From a virus: DNA of 64,000 nt. The position numbers were made by a program, and so were the translations under genes. This document shows positions 2,737 to 30,359 of this stretch, piece after piece (the first letter of the stretch is position 1; the number at the start of each line of letters is the position of its first letter). The notes beneath the pieces were generated by a model. It was not told the DNA's origin, did not search any database, and was given only the letters and a program-made list of their open reading frames with translations. The stretch is from positions 64,001-128,000 of the IMG/VR virus record IMGVR_UViG_3300025288_000012, one strand, 5' to 3'.

Positions 2737-3693
2737 ATGTCGAACATTATTGTCACGGGCGGTGCAGGTTTTATTGGTGCAGGTCTAGTCAGGAAGTTGT
2801 TGGAACTGCAAGACGTAAAGTCACTGGTAATAGTTGATTCGTTCCTTACAGGCGACGAGCGCAATATTCCAGAAGACTCACGAGTACAAGTCATGCAGAA
2901 GGACGTTATTGAGGTGCAGCCGCAGGACTTTAGTAAGGTGGATCAAATTTACCACCTTGCATGTCCTGCAAGTCCTGTCTGGTACGAGCGTGATCCGGTC
3001 CATACCATCAAGTCTGCCTTCGTCGGAACCTTGAACATGCTCAATGTTGCGAAGGTATACGACGCGAAGATTCTCATTACGTCTACGTCTGAAGTTTACG
3101 GTGATCCTGAAGTGTCTCCGCAAAAAGAGTCGTACAACGGAAACGTACCTATCAATGGAACTCGTTCATGTTACGACGAAGGCAAACGTGCAGCTGAAAG
3201 TCTTGCATTTGACTTCTGGCGTATGTACCGCACTGAAATCAAAATTGCTCGCCTGTTCAACACCTATGGTCCTAAGATGTTGGATAACGATGGAAGGGTA
3301 GTTAGTAACTTCATTGTGCAGTCGTTGAAAGGGCTGCCTGTAACCATCTACGGTGATGGAAGTCAGACTCGTTCGTTCTGCTACATTGACGACACGGTGG
3401 ACTTCCTTATTAAGTTCATGCGCAGTGACCGGCACATTACGGGACCGATAAACGTAGGCAACCCTACCGAGTTCACGATAAAAGATCTGGCAGAGAAAGT
3501 GTCTTCCATGGTAAGCGTCTTAACAGGTTACGCTCCAAAGTTCGTGTTCAACAAACTTCCGAGTGACGATCCGAAGCAACGAAAGCCCGATATCACTAAG
3601 GCTAATGAGTTGCTGGGATGGGCTCCCATAGTTGGCATTGACGAAGGCTTGGAAAAGACCATCAAATATTTCATCACGGAGGGACTGGCATGA
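2737..3693 (+). CDS. UDP-glucuronate decarboxylase / UDP-xylose synthase-like extended SDR
   Basis: GGAGFIG, HLACPASP, TSTSEVYGDP, YDEGK (YxxxK), ARLFNTYGP, DDPKQRKPDI. Confidence 0.9.
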   Translation: MSNIIVTGGAGFIGAGLVRKLLELQDVKSLVIVDSFLTGDERNIPEDSRVQVMQKDVIEVQPQDFSKVDQIYHLACPASPVWYERDPVHTIKSAFVGTLNMLNVAKVYDAKILITSTSEVYGDPEVSPQKESYNGNVPINGTRSCYDEGKRAAESLAFDFWRMYRTEIKIARLFNTYGPKMLDNDGRVVSNFIVQSLKGLPVTIYGDGSQTRSFCYIDDTVDFLIKFMRSDRHITGPINVGNPTEFTIKDLAEKVSSMVSVLTGYAPKFVFNKLPSDDPKQRKPDITKANELLGWAPIVGIDEGLEKTIKYFITEGLA

Positions 3694-16391: not shown

Positions 16392-19300
16392 ATGTTATTC
16401 ACTACTTCGGGAATGGGCATGAACATAGGACTACAAGAAGCTTCATTTGACATTTGGGATACCAAATATCGGCTGCGTGACTCGGAAGGCAATCCAGTAG
16501 ACAAAGACCTAGAAGCCTCGCGCAGGCGTGTCGCTACTGCCTTAGCTGAAGCGGAGCCAGCCGAGATGCGAGCTAGTTACGAGAAACTCTACTATGACGC
16601 TCTGGAGTATGCTATCCCTGCTGGGCGCATCTACTCCAATGCTGGTGCATCGGATCATAAAAGAGCCGTGTCTCTAATCAACTGCACGGTCAGTGATACC
16701 ATCCAGGATTCGATGGACAGCATCCTGATGAAGCTATACGAATCTGGTCTTACGCTACGGGCAGGGTGCGGTATAGGATATGAGTTCAGTACTTTGCGCC
16801 CGAAAGGCAGTTTCGTTTTCGGTGCGGGTGCTGTAACATCAGGCCCGTTGTCCTTCATGGACGTATATGACAAGACGTGCTTCACTATTTCTTCAGCAGG
16901 TGGTCGTCGTGGTGCTCAGATGGCCACCTTCGACATTTCACATCCTGACGTACTTGAGTTCATACGGGCAAAGCGTGAGGATGGCCGTCTGCGTCAGTTC
17001 AACCTATCAGTGTTGGTTACTGACGAATTCATCCACGCCGTCAAGAATGATTTGACCTGGGTGTTTAAGTGGGATGGAAAGCCGTATGGAAATCCCATTC
17101 CGGCTAAAGAGTTGTGGGACATCATTATGAAGTCCACCTACAACTTCGCTGAGCCTGGCTTCCTCCTTGTAGACCGTATTAACCATTACAACAACCTTTG
17201 GTTCTGCGAGAACCTTCGTGCTACGAATCCTTGTGTCACAGGGGATACCTTAGTTGCAGTAGCAGGGCGTGGTCCAGTACCTATTAAGCAACTTGCTGAA
17301 GAAGGTGTAGATATACCCGTATACGGGTATGACTTTGAAACAGGAAAAACCGTAGTCAAGTACGGGCGAAACCCACGTCGAACCGGAATAGGACATAAGG
17401 TTTATCGCGTAACACTTGATGACGGTTCCTCTTTCAAAGGTAATGCTAAGCACAAAGTTCCACTACGCGATGGGTCAATAGTGGGGATTGAGGACTTAGT
17501 GGGTGGGGAAAGTCTCGTACCTTTCGTCCTAAAGGACGACCGTTATGGCACATTTGTTCAAACTACGGACGGCTATAGCAAAGACTACCAACTCCTGCTG
17601 AACTGCAAGTATTATGGCACGGATCTGGATTTTGGTACAGGTGTAGGTAAAATCCATAGTCACCACGTAGATGGTGACCACTTCAATAACGACATGGACA
17701 ATCTAGAAGCTATGTACCATGAGGAGCATACGTCCCATCATCTTACAGAAGCAAATTACGGCGTAGTCAGTCAAGGACGTGTTCAACCTCTCAAGGTTCG
17801 TAAGACAAAACACTCTAAAACCACACGTAGGTTAATCGGACTTAAGACGCTTGCTCGATTTTCTAATAACCCAGCTTTTAAAGCTAATCATCGCGCGGCC
17901 GTAGCTGAGGCAATGCAAAAACCTGAGACACGTGCTTTACTGTCAAAGGTTAAAACTAAAGATCGCCAAGTATTGAGCTGCGTGTGTGAGGGGTGTGAAA
18001 CACCTTTTAATCTTACCGTAATTGTAGGACGGACTAGCCCACAACGCTTCTGTAGTCAATCGTGTGCTGCTGCGCACAACTCAGCTATAGCTGCGAATAC
18101 ACCTCGTACCCAAGAGACGTTAGACGCAATATCAAAGGGGTCCAAAGCATTTGCAGCTACTCGAAAAGGGCGTAAGTCTAAACGTGCTGCTGGTTCTGCC
18201 TCTATTGTGCAGAGTTCCTTGAAATGTGGCTCGATGATGCTTCATCTTGGACATAAAATCTCAGCACGTACTTGGGACTCCTTGAAGTACGTTCTTCATG
18301 AGGCTGGGATCAAACCAACTATCGGTGCTGCCTGGATTGATAATCAGTGGGATGGTGACTGGAAAGCCTTCACTAAGGAGTGCAAGGCCTATAATCACAA
18401 GGTAGTAAGCATTGAGTACGTAGGGCGAGAAGACGTTTACAATCTAACTGTGGACGATGTACACAATTACTGCATAGTGACAAAGTCTTGGAAGGATAAG
18501 GGTATCACATACTGGACAGGTGTGCTGCAAAAAAATTGCGGTGAGCAACCGCTTCCCCCTTACGGGGCGTGCTTGTTGGGTTCCCTCAACCTGACCAAAT
18601 TCGTACTCAATCCGTTCACTTCAGCTGCTACCTTCGACTTTTCAAAGTATGAGGAGATCATCAAGATCTTTACCCGTATGCTGGACAACGTCGTAGAAAG
18701 TAATGGTCTTCCCTTGATCCAACAGCGTCATGAGATCGAGTCCAAGCGTCGTCACGGAATGGGTTTCTTGGGTCTCGGTTCTACCTTGACTATGCTAGGT
18801 ATGACCTATGGCAGTCCAGAGTCAGTAGCCTTCACCTCTGAGGTCACGAAATGTTTGGCCATGACCAGCTTTGATGCTGGTGTTGACCTGGCTATCGAAA
18901 AAGGTGAAGCCCCTATTCTGCAACAAGAGTTCAATTCGGTTGAGCTTCAAAATTCTCCCAATGGTCGTTTCAATACCAACATGCGGTACGCGAACGAGAC
19001 CTACACTGGTCGTCAGCTTTTGCTTCAAAGCCATTACTTCGATGCGTGGCGGAGCGACGAGAGAGGGTCAGCAATTCTCAAGCGTATCAAGAAACACGGC
19101 TGTCGGTTTACCCATGCTACGTCTTTGGCACCTACAGGCTGTTGCCTGTCCTCAACTAAAATAATAACTGATGCTGGAATAAAGTCTTATCAGTCTATTA
19201 TGGAGGAGAACGGTATTGACTGGAAGTCTATAGAAAAAACAAACGAAAAGCAATGGCTACCACTCAAGCCTTTCACCTTACCGTCACTTGATAACTATGC

Positions 19301-19478
19301 TGACAGCAGTGATAAAATTTGGTACAATGGTTACGAAGAAATTTACGAAATTGTATTTGAAGATGGCTCTATCTTTGAGTGTACTCCCATTCATAAACTT
19401 TTTGTACGAATTGGTAAACATATCGTAGAAGTTGAAGCACAATACTTGAAAGGAGACGAAGATATTGTGTCCTACTAA
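16392..19478 (+). CDS. nrdJ: class II (B12-dependent) ribonucleotide reductase, N-terminal part; contains one intein and ends in a split-intein N-half
   Basis: PAGRIYSNAG, INCTV, GGRRGAQM, ATNP|CGEQPL, ACLLGSLNL, SLAPTG|C. Confidence 0.93.
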   Translation: MLFTTSGMGMNIGLQEASFDIWDTKYRLRDSEGNPVDKDLEASRRRVATALAEAEPAEMRASYEKLYYDALEYAIPAGRIYSNAGASDHKRAVSLINCTVSDTIQDSMDSILMKLYESGLTLRAGCGIGYEFSTLRPKGSFVFGAGAVTSGPLSFMDVYDKTCFTISSAGGRRGAQMATFDISHPDVLEFIRAKREDGRLRQFNLSVLVTDEFIHAVKNDLTWVFKWDGKPYGNPIPAKELWDIIMKSTYNFAEPGFLLVDRINHYNNLWFCENLRATNPCVTGDTLVAVAGRGPVPIKQLAEEGVDIPVYGYDFETGKTVVKYGRNPRRTGIGHKVYRVTLDDGSSFKGNAKHKVPLRDGSIVGIEDLVGGESLVPFVLKDDRYGTFVQTTDGYSKDYQLLLNCKYYGTDLDFGTGVGKIHSHHVDGDHFNNDMDNLEAMYHEEHTSHHLTEANYGVVSQGRVQPLKVRKTKHSKTTRRLIGLKTLARFSNNPAFKANHRAAVAEAMQKPETRALLSKVKTKDRQVLSCVCEGCETPFNLTVIVGRTSPQRFCSQSCAAAHNSAIAANTPRTQETLDAISKGSKAFAATRKGRKSKRAAGSASIVQSSLKCGSMMLHLGHKISARTWDSLKYVLHEAGIKPTIGAAWIDNQWDGDWKAFTKECKAYNHKVVSIEYVGREDVYNLTVDDVHNYCIVTKSWKDKGITYWTGVLQKNCGEQPLPPYGACLLGSLNLTKFVLNPFTSAATFDFSKYEEIIKIFTRMLDNVVESNGLPLIQQRHEIESKRRHGMGFLGLGSTLTMLGMTYGSPESVAFTSEVTKCLAMTSFDAGVDLAIEKGEAPILQQEFNSVELQNSPNGRFNTNMRYANETYTGRQLLLQSHYFDAWRSDERGSAILKRIKKHGCRFTHATSLAPTGCCLSSTKIITDAGIKSYQSIMEENGIDWKSIEKTNEKQWLPLKPFTLPSLDNYADSSDKIWYNGYEEIYEIVFEDGSIFECTPIHKLFVRIGKHIVEVEAQYLKGDEDIVSY
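17232..18536 (+). mobile_element. NrdJ intein 1 (435 aa) with HNH endonuclease and Cys-rich Zn motif
   Basis: CVTGDT.., HHVDGDHFNNDMDNLE..H, CVCEGC..FCSQSC, ends VLQKN; +1 is the catalytic Cys of NPCGE. Confidence 0.92.
19140..19478 (+). mobile_element. split intein N-half (112 aa) in NrdJ
   Basis: APTG|CCLSSTKIITDAG block A, ECTPIHKLF block B, then stop. Confidence 0.9.
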
Positions 19479-19553
19479 GACTTAATCTGCTAGGTGCAAT
19501 CGAGCAATCATCACTGTAATTTAATGATGTTAAAATAGTGGAGATTGCACCAG

Positions 19554-20858
19554 ATGAAAAATCTACCAATAGACTGCATATTAGGTTGGTATTCCAAGTC
19601 GTTTAAGTGGTTTTCTGAGCATTCCACTTCGGAATTAAAGAGAGAACTAGTTGCACTACCTAAGTCGCAATTAAGAATTTTATACGGAACTCCAGCTGGG
19701 TATGACAACTCAATGTTTTCTAAGGTACCAGAATACGTTTTGCGAAACGGTCTTTTATACGCAAAAAAATTTAACGATAGACATGCAGCATTCAAGTACA
19801 TTAAGTATACTCTTGAGTTGGATACTTTAGACCATTTGATTCCCGGTCAGTTTGGTATATTTCTTGAGCTTTTATTGAAGCGGGGCGTTACATTGCAGCC
19901 TAAGACTAGGGAGTACGCGGTTGCAAAATACGGAGAAGCGTTAGGTCCATATTATCGTACAAAGGTTTTAGCTAAGGCAAACCCATACAGCGTAGAGGCC
20001 GTTATGACTAGGAACGGTCTATGCAAGTCTGATGCCTTAAAAGTAATAGAAGAGCGCAAGAAAGCAACTTCAGGATCTTTAGAAACTTTTGTAAAACGCT
20101 ACGGTGCAAAGGAAGGAAGTCGAAGGCACAAACTTTTCGGGCAACGCTCCTCACATACTAAAGAGAAATTTAAAGAGAAATACGGCAAAAGGTGGGCAAA
20201 GAAATGGAGATCTTATAGAAGATCGAAGGATAGCTCTTCATTAGAATTCTGGATAACGAAATTGGGTCCAGAACTCGGTCCTGCAGCGTACAAAAAGAAA
20301 ATTTTAGCCTGTACGTTTAACTACGAGGAGTGCTTGCTAAAATTTGACGGTGATGAAAAGAATGCAAGCAAATTCTACAGAGACTACTGTTTACGAAAAA
20401 CAAGACATTGGAGAGGTGCTGGTAATGGAGGTGCTCTAACAAAAGAATCTAAAAAGTTTTTCAATCCTATACTTGACTATTTGGATGAAATAGGAATTGA
20501 CTATATAATAGGTGACTCACGTGGTGGTAAAGAATACTACATCTGGGATAATTTTCAGAAGAAAATTAGGTATTATGACTTCTGCATTCCTGATATCAAA
20601 TACATAATAGAGTTTGATGGTGGTACACATCCTAGTCCTTTGCTCTCAAAAAATGAGCTTAGAACTTGGCGGTGTTTTTTAAGTGGTGTTTCAGCACAAA
20701 CCCGATTAGAAGATGACAATAGAAAAGAATACTTAGCAGTTAGAAAGGGATTCACCTTTAGCCGCATACACGTGGACGAGTTTAGGGCCGATCCACATAT
20801 GCAAATTAAAAAGCATTTGAACCAAATAACTAAACTTCTTAAAAAGGAAAGACCGTGA
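19554..20858 (+). CDS. free-standing Vsr/DUF559-like homing endonuclease between the split-intein halves
   Basis: YYDFCIPDIKYIIEFDG..H..DDNRKEYLAVRKGF; repeated F..KYG units; visibly AT-richer than the flanks; GGAG RBS before ATG 19554. Confidence 0.75.
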   Translation: MKNLPIDCILGWYSKSFKWFSEHSTSELKRELVALPKSQLRILYGTPAGYDNSMFSKVPEYVLRNGLLYAKKFNDRHAAFKYIKYTLELDTLDHLIPGQFGIFLELLLKRGVTLQPKTREYAVAKYGEALGPYYRTKVLAKANPYSVEAVMTRNGLCKSDALKVIEERKKATSGSLETFVKRYGAKEGSRRHKLFGQRSSHTKEKFKEKYGKRWAKKWRSYRRSKDSSSLEFWITKLGPELGPAAYKKKILACTFNYEECLLKFDGDEKNASKFYRDYCLRKTRHWRGAGNGGALTKESKKFFNPILDYLDEIGIDYIIGDSRGGKEYYIWDNFQKKIRYYDFCIPDIKYIIEFDGGTHPSPLLSKNELRTWRCFLSGVSAQTRLEDDNRKEYLAVRKGFTFSRIHVDEFRADPHMQIKKHLNQITKLLKKERP

Positions 20859-28135: not shown

Positions 28136-28657
28136 GTGGGTAGTGCAACCTTGCTTGCGGCCTCTCAAATTCAGGAGCTGAAGGGCTTCCTTGGTCTTGT
28201 CGTAAGCAAAATTGACAGACCTATCTTCGTAGTACCTAACAAAGAAGTCATGCTGACGGCTTTACGAACTGTGCAGCTTTCTCTCACTAGCGTCTGTAGC
28301 GTCTGCATACTTTCACTTGAAACGCGAGGGTCTGAGCTAGAGTCGTACCTAGATGAAGAAAGTTGTAACTCCTTGCGAACTCGCCTAGACTACGTAACTC
28401 AAAGCTTAGACTTCTTCAAGCAACGTTCCCCTGTTGCGTTGTTCCGCACACACGGCGTACCAGGTGGAAGTGAAATAGGTGCACTACTGGACATGTGCAG
28501 TCACACATGCTTCTCGGTTCAGGCCTTACTTAAGGCAGACTCGTTAGCTGCAACCTACTTTTCTTCTCTTGCCTCACTACTTTACGAAATTGCTCGATAC
28601 TTGAATGCCTCAGTTGGGCAACGTGAGCTAGAGTACACTGTAAAAATGAGTCTCTAG
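28136..28657 (+). CDS. divergent PduO-type cobalamin adenosyltransferase-like protein
   Basis: ELKGFLGL, VPGGSEIGALLDMC, LASLLYEIARYLN; N-terminal TxTGD motif not seen. Confidence 0.5.
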   Translation: MGSATLLAASQIQELKGFLGLVVSKIDRPIFVVPNKEVMLTALRTVQLSLTSVCSVCILSLETRGSELESYLDEESCNSLRTRLDYVTQSLDFFKQRSPVALFRTHGVPGGSEIGALLDMCSHTCFSVQALLKADSLAATYFSSLASLLYEIARYLNASVGQRELEYTVKMSL

Positions 28658-28671
28658 CACGGATTACGAAA

Positions 28672-29418
28672 ATGACCACAACTCGAACAACTCGGAAAGT
28701 ATCTAGCACTTCATCCAAACCTAAGATGAAGATCGAATCGCTTGCAGTGAAGTACCGTCCTAAAGTATTGGAGGACTTGGTAGGACAGCCACACCTAGTC
28801 TCACAGCTTCGCGGCATGTTCAAGGCTGGCAAAATACCAAGTGCAATCCTTCTGGCAGGCGAATCAGGTACGGGCAAGACGACTACTGCTCGTATGATTG
28901 CACGTTATCTGAACTGCAATAACCCTGATCCAGCAACACATGCACCTTGCGGTGAGTGCATAAGCTGCAAATACGGTGATGGTCACCCTGACTTCCTTGA
29001 AATGAACATGGCCGATGCCCGAGGCATTGACGACATTCGCGGCCTTATTGCCTCGTCCAAGAACATGCCTGTCATGGGTGAGAACCGCATATTTCTTCTG
29101 GACGAGTGCTTCCCCCCAGATACAGAGATTGAGGTAGAGCCCGGTAAGTTTAGAACTATCAGCGATATATGCTCAGACCCTCAAGACGTAAACGTGCTTT
29201 CGTTTAATCATGAAACTGGTGAAGTTGAGAGTAAACAAGTTGAAGCGAAGCTCCCAAAACCATCTGATGACCGAGAAATGGTTGAAGTCATTCTAGCGGA
29301 TGGCTCTGTCCAACCTTGCACTTCAAATCATAAATGGTGGAGTGTAACACGGGGCATGATGGTAGAGGCCAAGGATCTTATGCCCGAAGAGGAGTTACTT
29401 GTCATTTACGAGTCATGA
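28672..29418 (+). CDS. dnaX: DNA polymerase III gamma/tau-like clamp loader, N-terminal part plus split-intein N-half
   Basis: KYRP..DLVGQ, GESGTGKTT, C..PCGEC.SC, IFLLDE|CFPPDT. Confidence 0.92.
   Translation: MTTTRTTRKVSSTSSKPKMKIESLAVKYRPKVLEDLVGQPHLVSQLRGMFKAGKIPSAILLAGESGTGKTTTARMIARYLNCNNPDPATHAPCGECISCKYGDGHPDFLEMNMADARGIDDIRGLIASSKNMPVMGENRIFLLDECFPPDTEIEVEPGKFRTISDICSDPQDVNVLSFNHETGEVESKQVEAKLPKPSDDREMVEVILADGSVQPCTSNHKWWSVTRGMMVEAKDLMPEEELLVIYES
29107..29418 (+). mobile_element. split intein N-half (103 aa) in DnaX
   Basis: CFPPDTEI block A, CTSNHKW block B, then TGA. Confidence 0.9.
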
Positions 29419-29480
29419 GTCCACTGAACAGTTTACCTTCTCGGTAGTGACTTTCTCAAACCCATTTAGGAACCTACACA

Positions 29481-29621
29481 ATGCGAGTCTCAACCATCAA
29501 GGTTTCGAGTGTACGCCACATCTCCATTGCGAGCAACCAGGTATTTGACTTAACAGTTAAAGACAACCATAACTTTTTCGTTCGCCCAAAAGGAGCAACT
29601 GGTTCTGTATTGGTTTCAAAT
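29481..29621 (+). mobile_element. split intein C-half (47 aa) in DnaX
   Basis: VFDLTVKDNHNFFV block F, ends LVSN, +1 Cys. Confidence 0.88.
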
Positions 29622-30359
29622 TGTCACCAAATTACTCCCCAGGGAGCGCAGGCTCTTCTGAAACCTTTGGAAGAACCACCTGCGTCTACCTTGTGGATAT
29701 TGGCCACTACAAATCCTGAGAAGCTACCTCCTACTGTTCGCGGTAGATGCCATCAGTTTGAAGTGAAAGCCATAGCTCCTAACGAGCTCTCACGACGCTT
29801 GAGTCGCATTGCCCGTCTTGAGGGCATTGACACCAAGGCTATTGAGGACTGGTCAGGCATAACAAAGATCATTTCCGACCTTGCTAATGGCAGGATGCGT
29901 GACTCTATTCAGATGCTGGAGAGCGTGATCTTTGCACTCAACAGTGGAGAGGACGTTGATCCGCGTTCTGTAATCAAGACCTTCCTAAACTCTACTGAGG
30001 CTGAGCTTGACGAGAGTGCAGCCCGACTGTTGCTGGGCATAATTCAGGCAAACATGAAGGTGTGTCTGAAAGAGATTCGTGGGTGTGGTAATGCTCGTGG
30101 CTTGATGAACAAGCTGCGCTGGTTGATTGTTTACCTGACTGACAACTCGGTAGGGCTGGCTAAGTTCACCCCGTGGTCAGGCAAGGCATTTGCAAAGCTT
30201 GCACAGGGTACCGGAGTGCGGATAAACCTAGCCCTGCTGCTGAACCTCCAGTCGCTGTTGATAGAAATGGAATTCCGTTTCAACTCACTGAGCCTTGAGG
30301 AATCAATAGTCATGAGCGCTATGCTGGCTGACTTCATTACCAAGAGAAAGAACGAGTAG
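29481..30359 (+). CDS. dnaX: DnaX clamp loader, C-terminal part
   Basis: SN|CHQIT..AQALLKPLEEPP, LATTNPEKL..TVRGRC, GRMRDS. Confidence 0.92.
   Translation: MRVSTIKVSSVRHISIASNQVFDLTVKDNHNFFVRPKGATGSVLVSNCHQITPQGAQALLKPLEEPPASTLWILATTNPEKLPPTVRGRCHQFEVKAIAPNELSRRLSRIARLEGIDTKAIEDWSGITKIISDLANGRMRDSIQMLESVIFALNSGEDVDPRSVIKTFLNSTEAELDESAARLLLGIIQANMKVCLKEIRGCGNARGLMNKLRWLIVYLTDNSVGLAKFTPWSGKAFAKLAQGTGVRINLALLLNLQSLLIEMEFRFNSLSLEESIVMSAMLADFITKRKNE

Follow-up and report, generated by a model that had tools for sequence, protein, structure and literature searches.

How does a phage obtain a working clamp loader when its gene for this ATPase is broken in two right after the Walker B motif? The question is raised by a locus in a 64,000-nucleotide stretch of DNA, here called the window, which comprises bases 64001-128000 of a 190,918-bp IMG/VR virus record (estimated to be 78% complete) from an uncultured large phage. 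Very probably, the answer is that a naturally split class-1 mini-intein interrupts the apparently sole DnaX/gamma-like clamp-loader ATPase of this phage at its Walker-B site, that the two gene products are joined by trans-splicing, and that an endonuclease gene formerly associated with the intein was later deleted.

All large ORFs of the window are on the plus strand, including the two adjacent ORFs in different frames that encode the clamp loader (Table 1). The first-pass annotation had described a DnaX-N part reading LLDE/CFPPDT, with a 103-aa acidic N-intein and a stop ending at 29418, followed by a 62-bp spacer with an AGGA ribosome binding site and an ATG that opens a 47-aa C-intein ending in SN before CHQIT. 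The ORF reading and the net charge of the N-intein (-13) agree with this description. The annotation had further listed two stops in the N frame (29416 and 29425) and a single one in the C frame (29448), and it had held that no single sequencing error could join the halves. The N-frame stops, the second of which is TGA 29425-27, and the conclusion were correct, whereas the C frame upstream of ATG 29481 in fact contains two stops, TAG 29445 and TGA 29448. No single insertion or deletion can fuse the two ORFs, as the first N-frame stop is located 5' of the last C-frame stop. Directly upstream of dnaX-N, a 173-aa ORF (28136-28654) matches cobalamin adenosyltransferase (PF01923) only at a sub-threshold level (E = 1.4e-4).

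Table 1. Coordinates of the features of the split clamp-loader locus in the window.
Feature	Position	Strand	Basis
N-half ORF, 248 aa	28672-29418	+	clamp-loader N-part fused to N-intein
N-extein, clamp-loader residues 1-145, Walker A GESGTGKTT, Walker B LLDE	28672-29106	+	PF13177, phrog_5846, colinear with intein-less L029 gene
N-intein, 103 aa (C146-S248)	29107-29415	+	Cys1, block A CFPPDT, block B TSNH, profile match
Endonuclease 3'-end remnant, 72 nt, ~17-23 codons	29402-29473	-	reads ..VPKWV(stop)ESHYREGKLFSGLMTRK(stop)
N-half gene stop TGA	29416-29418	+	read from sequence
Spacer, 62 nt	29419-29480	none	no plus-strand promoter- or terminator-like site found, no significant RNA structure (z = 0.64)
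Shine-Dalgarno-like AGGAA	29468-29472	+	8 nt upstream of C-half ATG; read from sequence
C-half ORF, 292 aa	29481-30359	+	C-intein fused to remaining clamp loader
C-intein, 47 aa (M1-N47)	29481-29621	+	block F VFDLTVKDNHNFFV, block G VLVSN, then CHQITPQ
C-extein, 245 aa + stop, CHQITPQ..LKPLEEPP	29622-30359	+	PF13177, phrog_5846, 94% identical to intein-less P0001

The two ORFs share the parts of one clamp loader between them. The Pfam domain DNA_pol3_delta2 (PF13177) is cleanly divided, with profile positions 1-109 in the N-extein (E = 3e-15) and 104-159 in the C-extein, and the same applies to the PHROG clamp-loader family phrog_5846, which was matched by the N-extein with E = 3e-35 and by the C-extein at positions 99-360. 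The C-extein begins with the +1 Cys and contains the sensor-1 motif ATTN, the arginine finger of a GRC motif, the Arg of which is invariant among the C-halves, and the lid and collar domains. Taken together, the exteins have the Walker A and B motifs, sensor 1, an SRC-type arginine finger, and the three-domain architecture of a DnaX/gamma-like AAA+ clamp loader. As Walker A and B are in the N-half and sensor 1 and the arginine finger in the C-half, both halves are needed for one ATPase site. When joined in silico, the exteins were colinear with the intein-less gene of the relative L029 (83.5% nucleotide identity), and the junction was exactly at GAG/TGT, corresponding to ..FLLDE/CHQITPQ.. in the protein. 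The intein-less homologue P0001 (395 aa, on L029) shares 94% amino acid identity with the exteins of the window. No other DNA_pol3_delta2 (clamp-loader) gene was found in the 190.9-kb record.

The point of insertion is known from cellular genes. According to Novikova et al. (2016; PMC4760082), cyanobacterial PolIII-gamma inteins have only one insertion point, which lies directly after Walker B, and the DnaX of Limnothrix rosea (P0204) aligns with the N-half of the window through the N-intein. Both observations agree with the earlier claim that the DE/CH site is common to the phage and cyanobacterial DnaX.

The sequences inserted at this site correspond to the two parts of a class-1 intein. Cys1 (C146) directly follows LLDE and opens the N-intein, which begins with CFPPDTEIEV, block B has the TxxH form, and the terminal Asn of the basic C-intein (net charge +3.7) is followed by the +1 Cys. 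Across 24 aligned relatives (N-halves or contiguous forms), neither Cys1 nor the block-B His varied and the block-B Thr was nearly invariant; in the C-halves, the terminal Asn and the +1 Cys were invariant. The penultimate residue is Ser instead of the usual His, and an SN terminus, present in 9 of 11 C-halves, is the rule in this family of clamp-loader split inteins. A penultimate His is common among inteins, not obligatory. The C-intein matches positions 119-148 of the intein splicing model PF14890, for which 18 matches were obtained across the whole 190,918-bp record. In the PDB, a profile made of six N-inteins matched only inteins, with NrdJ-1 (8ubs, E = 9e-9) being nearest to the N-half in sequence among the solved inteins, and a profile of the C-intein also matched only inteins, including the Spl DnaX mini-intein (7cfv); Pab PolC and DnaE inteins were among the matches of the half-intein profiles as well.

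The window halves (103 and 47 aa) align end to end with the contiguous mini-inteins of relatives, and the split point aligns with a loop that is continuous in the contiguous relatives of 496-551 aa and in LR745208.1. An AlphaFold2 model of the contiguous relative P0079 (pLDDT 85) showed an all-beta insert, and the rest of the fold matched E. coli gamma, whose chains matched the model with E = 1e-17; a Foldseek search with the whole 517-aa model, including the insert, returned only clamp loaders. In comparison with four split relatives, pN was 0.32-0.41 for both intein halves and pS was saturated at 0.7-0.9, and dN/dS is thus not quantifiable. Nevertheless, pN is far below pS, which indicates that both intein halves are under purifying selection.

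The first reading had also proposed that an endonuclease gene between the halves had been lost, and relatives support this. In syntenic loci, the gene order is ThyX, thymidylate kinase, a 320-aa gene, dnaX-N, dnaX-C, and a 788-aa gene. A minus-strand gene for an endonuclease-like protein of 267-459 aa lies between the halves in L023/24, the P0008 contig, L025, and L026, and also in L031, where the intein is at a second insertion site. These intervening genes and the N-half gene overlap at their 3' ends, and the products of the former match phrog_559/681 (endonuclease) and the zinc-ribbon repeats DUF723/DUF4379. Their nuclease label rests on the PHROG annotation "HNH endonuclease/endonuclease", as Pfam gave only the zinc-ribbon repeats and a sequence search of the PDB was uninformative with respect to the nuclease family. 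A pairwise comparison of the intervening gene with the endonucleases of a fractured DnaE locus and of the nrdJ locus of the window gave nothing significant. At this nrdJ locus, the end of a 1028-aa ORF (16392-19478) matches the N-terminal part of the intein model (19278-19469), and a 437-aa ORF (19545-20858) comes next; the pair fits a fractured nrdJ gene.

No intact free-standing endonuclease gene is present between the clamp-loader halves of the window, only a 72-nt remnant, which is interrupted by a stop at 29456-58 and extends 17 nt into the 3' end of the N-half gene. This remnant aligns with endonuclease C-termini (..VVYVWESHYSEGRMFTGQ.. in L026), and the BLOSUM62 local score of 55 against the L026 C-terminus was reached by none of 2000 shuffles. 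The relative L027/L028 has only a 90-nt spacer between the halves, in which L027 retains ..GYDVVWVWVWERHFRLG.., again with a score that was reached by none of 2000 shuffles. As the spacers retain the C-terminal codons of the endonuclease, the endonuclease-free state arose by deletion of its gene, and this deletion must have happened at least twice, as P0008, the nearest relative of L027, still has the endonuclease gene. By sequence comparison, the window is therefore a derived endonuclease-less stage, corresponding to step III of the model by Dassa, London, Stoddard, Schueler-Furman, and Pietrokovski (2009; PMC2677866). In L023, the endonuclease gene is frameshifted near its 3' end (2912-3010), with the conserved C-terminal motif in a frame other than that of the called gene, and this endonuclease appears to be decaying in place. 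When the window locus (28672-30359) was compared with L023, L025, L026, and L027, intein identity was about 50% irrespective of whether the exteins were 76% or 32% identical, and the endonuclease remnant of the window was closest to that of L026, whose extein is the most distant among these relatives. Such a pattern suggests that the intein-endonuclease cassette moved laterally between phage lineages.

A search of public data for split DnaX inteins, which had been named as a check on the first reading, showed that the locus is not a singular case. An exhaustive search with the N-half yielded at least 20 clusters (50% identity) of proteins of about 212-252 aa that consist of extein and N-intein and end at the same point as in the window. 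Proteins of 496-551 aa in which a contiguous mini-intein occupies this place were also obtained, as were longer forms. The search with the C-half gave mostly intein-less clamp loaders of about 370-400 aa, along with ten proteins of 278-297 aa that represent a C-half alone. In public data, split forms bear generic names only. A blastn search of deposited phages with 6 kb around the locus gave no match, and the protein search of deposited phages gave only intein-less clamp loaders of jumbo phages (26-34% identity; Lu11, PaBG, and Erwinia phages) and one phage with a contiguous mini-intein at DE/C, the uncultured 485-kb phage LR745208.1 (GenBank).

The same clamp-loader family has a second insertion site 10 residues downstream, reading ..SQAAQ/C..LVSN/CLLKILEEPP (L031:2140-4843), which is also found in P0016, P0018, P0078, P0086, P0088, and P0082 and occurs in a contiguous form and in a split form with a minus-strand endonuclease gene. 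A scan of viral contigs with the C-half mostly picked up inteins of other proteins (DnaE, RNR), which carry the same VKDNHNFF motif and are not clamp loaders. Among viral contigs, L016:2435-5245, L019:1944-5242, and L017:2176-5050 contain fractured DnaE genes, with a split intein and a same-strand endonuclease gene, and a split-intein ribonucleotide reductase; the C-inteins of these loci have the VKDNHNFF motif in common with the window C-intein.

In principle, the split could be a sequencing or assembly error, or programmed frameshifting or bypassing could yield a single precursor with a contiguous intein. In five contigs that come from different JGI/ENA samples and different assemblers, the entire 1,688-bp locus, spacer included, had the same sequence as the window (100% identity), and all of them have the layout of a naturally split intein in two separate genes. 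The exact 248-aa and 292-aa proteins were indexed in 41-43 blocks of a public assembly collection, with at least 24 contigs examined for each protein. As the locus is base-identical in five independently assembled contigs, an assembly error is excluded. Apart from the fact that the ORFs are adjacent on the same strand, nothing was found in favor of a single precursor. The two stops per frame are placed such that no single shift joins the ORFs, the C-half has a ribosome binding site and an ATG of its own, and related loci hold an antisense gene of 1-1.4 kb between the halves, which bypassing could not cross. We thus regard the probability of an artifact or a single precursor as practically negligible.

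Two other readings accept the split but dispense with splicing. The intein halves could have lost their splicing activity and now serve as a non-covalent docking module that holds the clamp-loader pieces together, resembling the fragmented NrdA of phage Aeh1, a split phage replication enzyme that is assembled without splicing via protein interaction domains (PMC3045599). The missing penultimate His of the window intein would be in line with such a loss, but Cys1, the block-B Thr and His, the terminal Asn, and the +1 Cys have been kept across many diverged relatives although docking does not need them, and an unspliced HINT domain of 150 aa would sit right after Walker B, within the ATP site. 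We therefore consider docking very unlikely. Still less can be said for a decaying pseudogene, in which the insertion and later deletion of the endonuclease gene would have inactivated the clamp loader and the phage would use that of its host. The spacer is indeed the wreckage of a mobile element, and the L023 endonuclease is itself frameshifted. However, both ORFs are intact and free of internal stops, pN is much lower than pS in exteins as well as inteins, lineages with as little as 32-50% identity retain the arrangement in two genes, many samples contain the identical locus, and this locus encodes the sole clamp loader in a record estimated to be 78% complete, all of which makes inactivation highly improbable.

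Most likely, the clamp loader thus has to be joined as a protein by trans-splicing. Co-transcription of the two halves is probable, as they share a strand, are separated by only 62 nt, and have no promoter- or terminator-like site between them. As read from the sequence, the N-half terminates at TGA 29416, and the C-half begins from an AGGAA-ATG of its own. The acidic N-intein and the basic C-intein are expected to associate and to fold into one HINT domain, and, judging from the conserved residues and the intein-less homologue, splicing would proceed through Cys1 (C146), the +1 Cys, and the terminal Asn47. The product would be a clamp loader of about 390 aa with the junction LLDE-CHQIT. In evolutionary terms, the ancestral state was probably a "fractured gene" with the endonuclease gene between the halves, as is still seen in relatives, and sequence comparison shows that in the window lineage nearly the whole endonuclease gene was later deleted, with its last 17-23 codons or so forming the present spacer.

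This scheme resembles the fractured genes described by Dassa et al. (PMC2677866), which include the endonuclease-less gp41-7 locus as step III. As in those cases, an intein marks the point at which a phage replication gene has come apart into two neighboring genes on one strand, the halves are separated by a free-standing endonuclease gene in relatives, and the stop of the upstream half lies within sequence contributed by the invading element; as at the gp41-7 locus, a later stage lacks the endonuclease gene and keeps a trace of it. In contrast to those loci, the endonuclease gene is on the opposite strand, the surviving trace is a coding remnant and not a hairpin, and the intein is hosted by a DnaX-like clamp loader, a protein absent from the eight enzyme types of that study (gp41, NrdA, NrdJ, IMPDH, DnaE, ligase, terminase, and one unknown). 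With the cyanobacterial DnaX inteins, the window intein shares the insertion point right after Walker B (point a of PolIII gamma, PMC4760082) and, in the case of the Spl DnaX mini-intein, the match to the C-intein profile, but those inteins are contiguous and in cellular genes, whereas the window intein is split into two genes in a phage. NrdJ-1 is likewise phage-derived and naturally split, and it combines an acidic N part with a basic C part, although the window intein differs from it and from the gp41-1/IMPDH-1 group in its host protein, its longer C-intein (47 aa), and its Ser-Asn end. The split DnaE inteins (Ssp/Npu) are also naturally split class-1 inteins of a replisome protein with Cys1 and +1 Cys, and Npu-type chains match the N-intein profile, but their halves are at separate genomic loci (Dassa step IV) and not 62 nt apart.

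Full-text searches of the published literature found no naturally split DnaX or clamp-loader intein. The fractured-gene kind, including its endonuclease-less stage, is known since 2009 (PMC2677866), and it is only the host protein that is new to the searchable literature. The clamp loader would join the short list of enzymes that are assembled by natural protein trans-splicing, and the many diverged natural split inteins of this family, with their Ser-Asn terminus and Cys +1, could be screened as orthogonal ligation tools. Trans-splicing might even be more than a tolerated relic: the clade may route several replisome enzymes, such as the clamp loader and the NrdJ of the same window, through mutually orthogonal split inteins, and the Cys1/+1-Cys chemistry could then serve as a post-translational gate, for example a redox-sensitive one, that times replisome assembly during infection, an idea that we consider unlikely. 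In one clade of uncultured large phages, there is an unusually complete series of stages, which comprises intein-less alleles, contiguous mini-inteins, fractured genes with endonuclease, endonuclease-deleted forms with a readable remnant, and the second site 10 residues downstream, and it provides direct evidence, at the level of sequence, for the pathway of gene breaking that was proposed in 2009.
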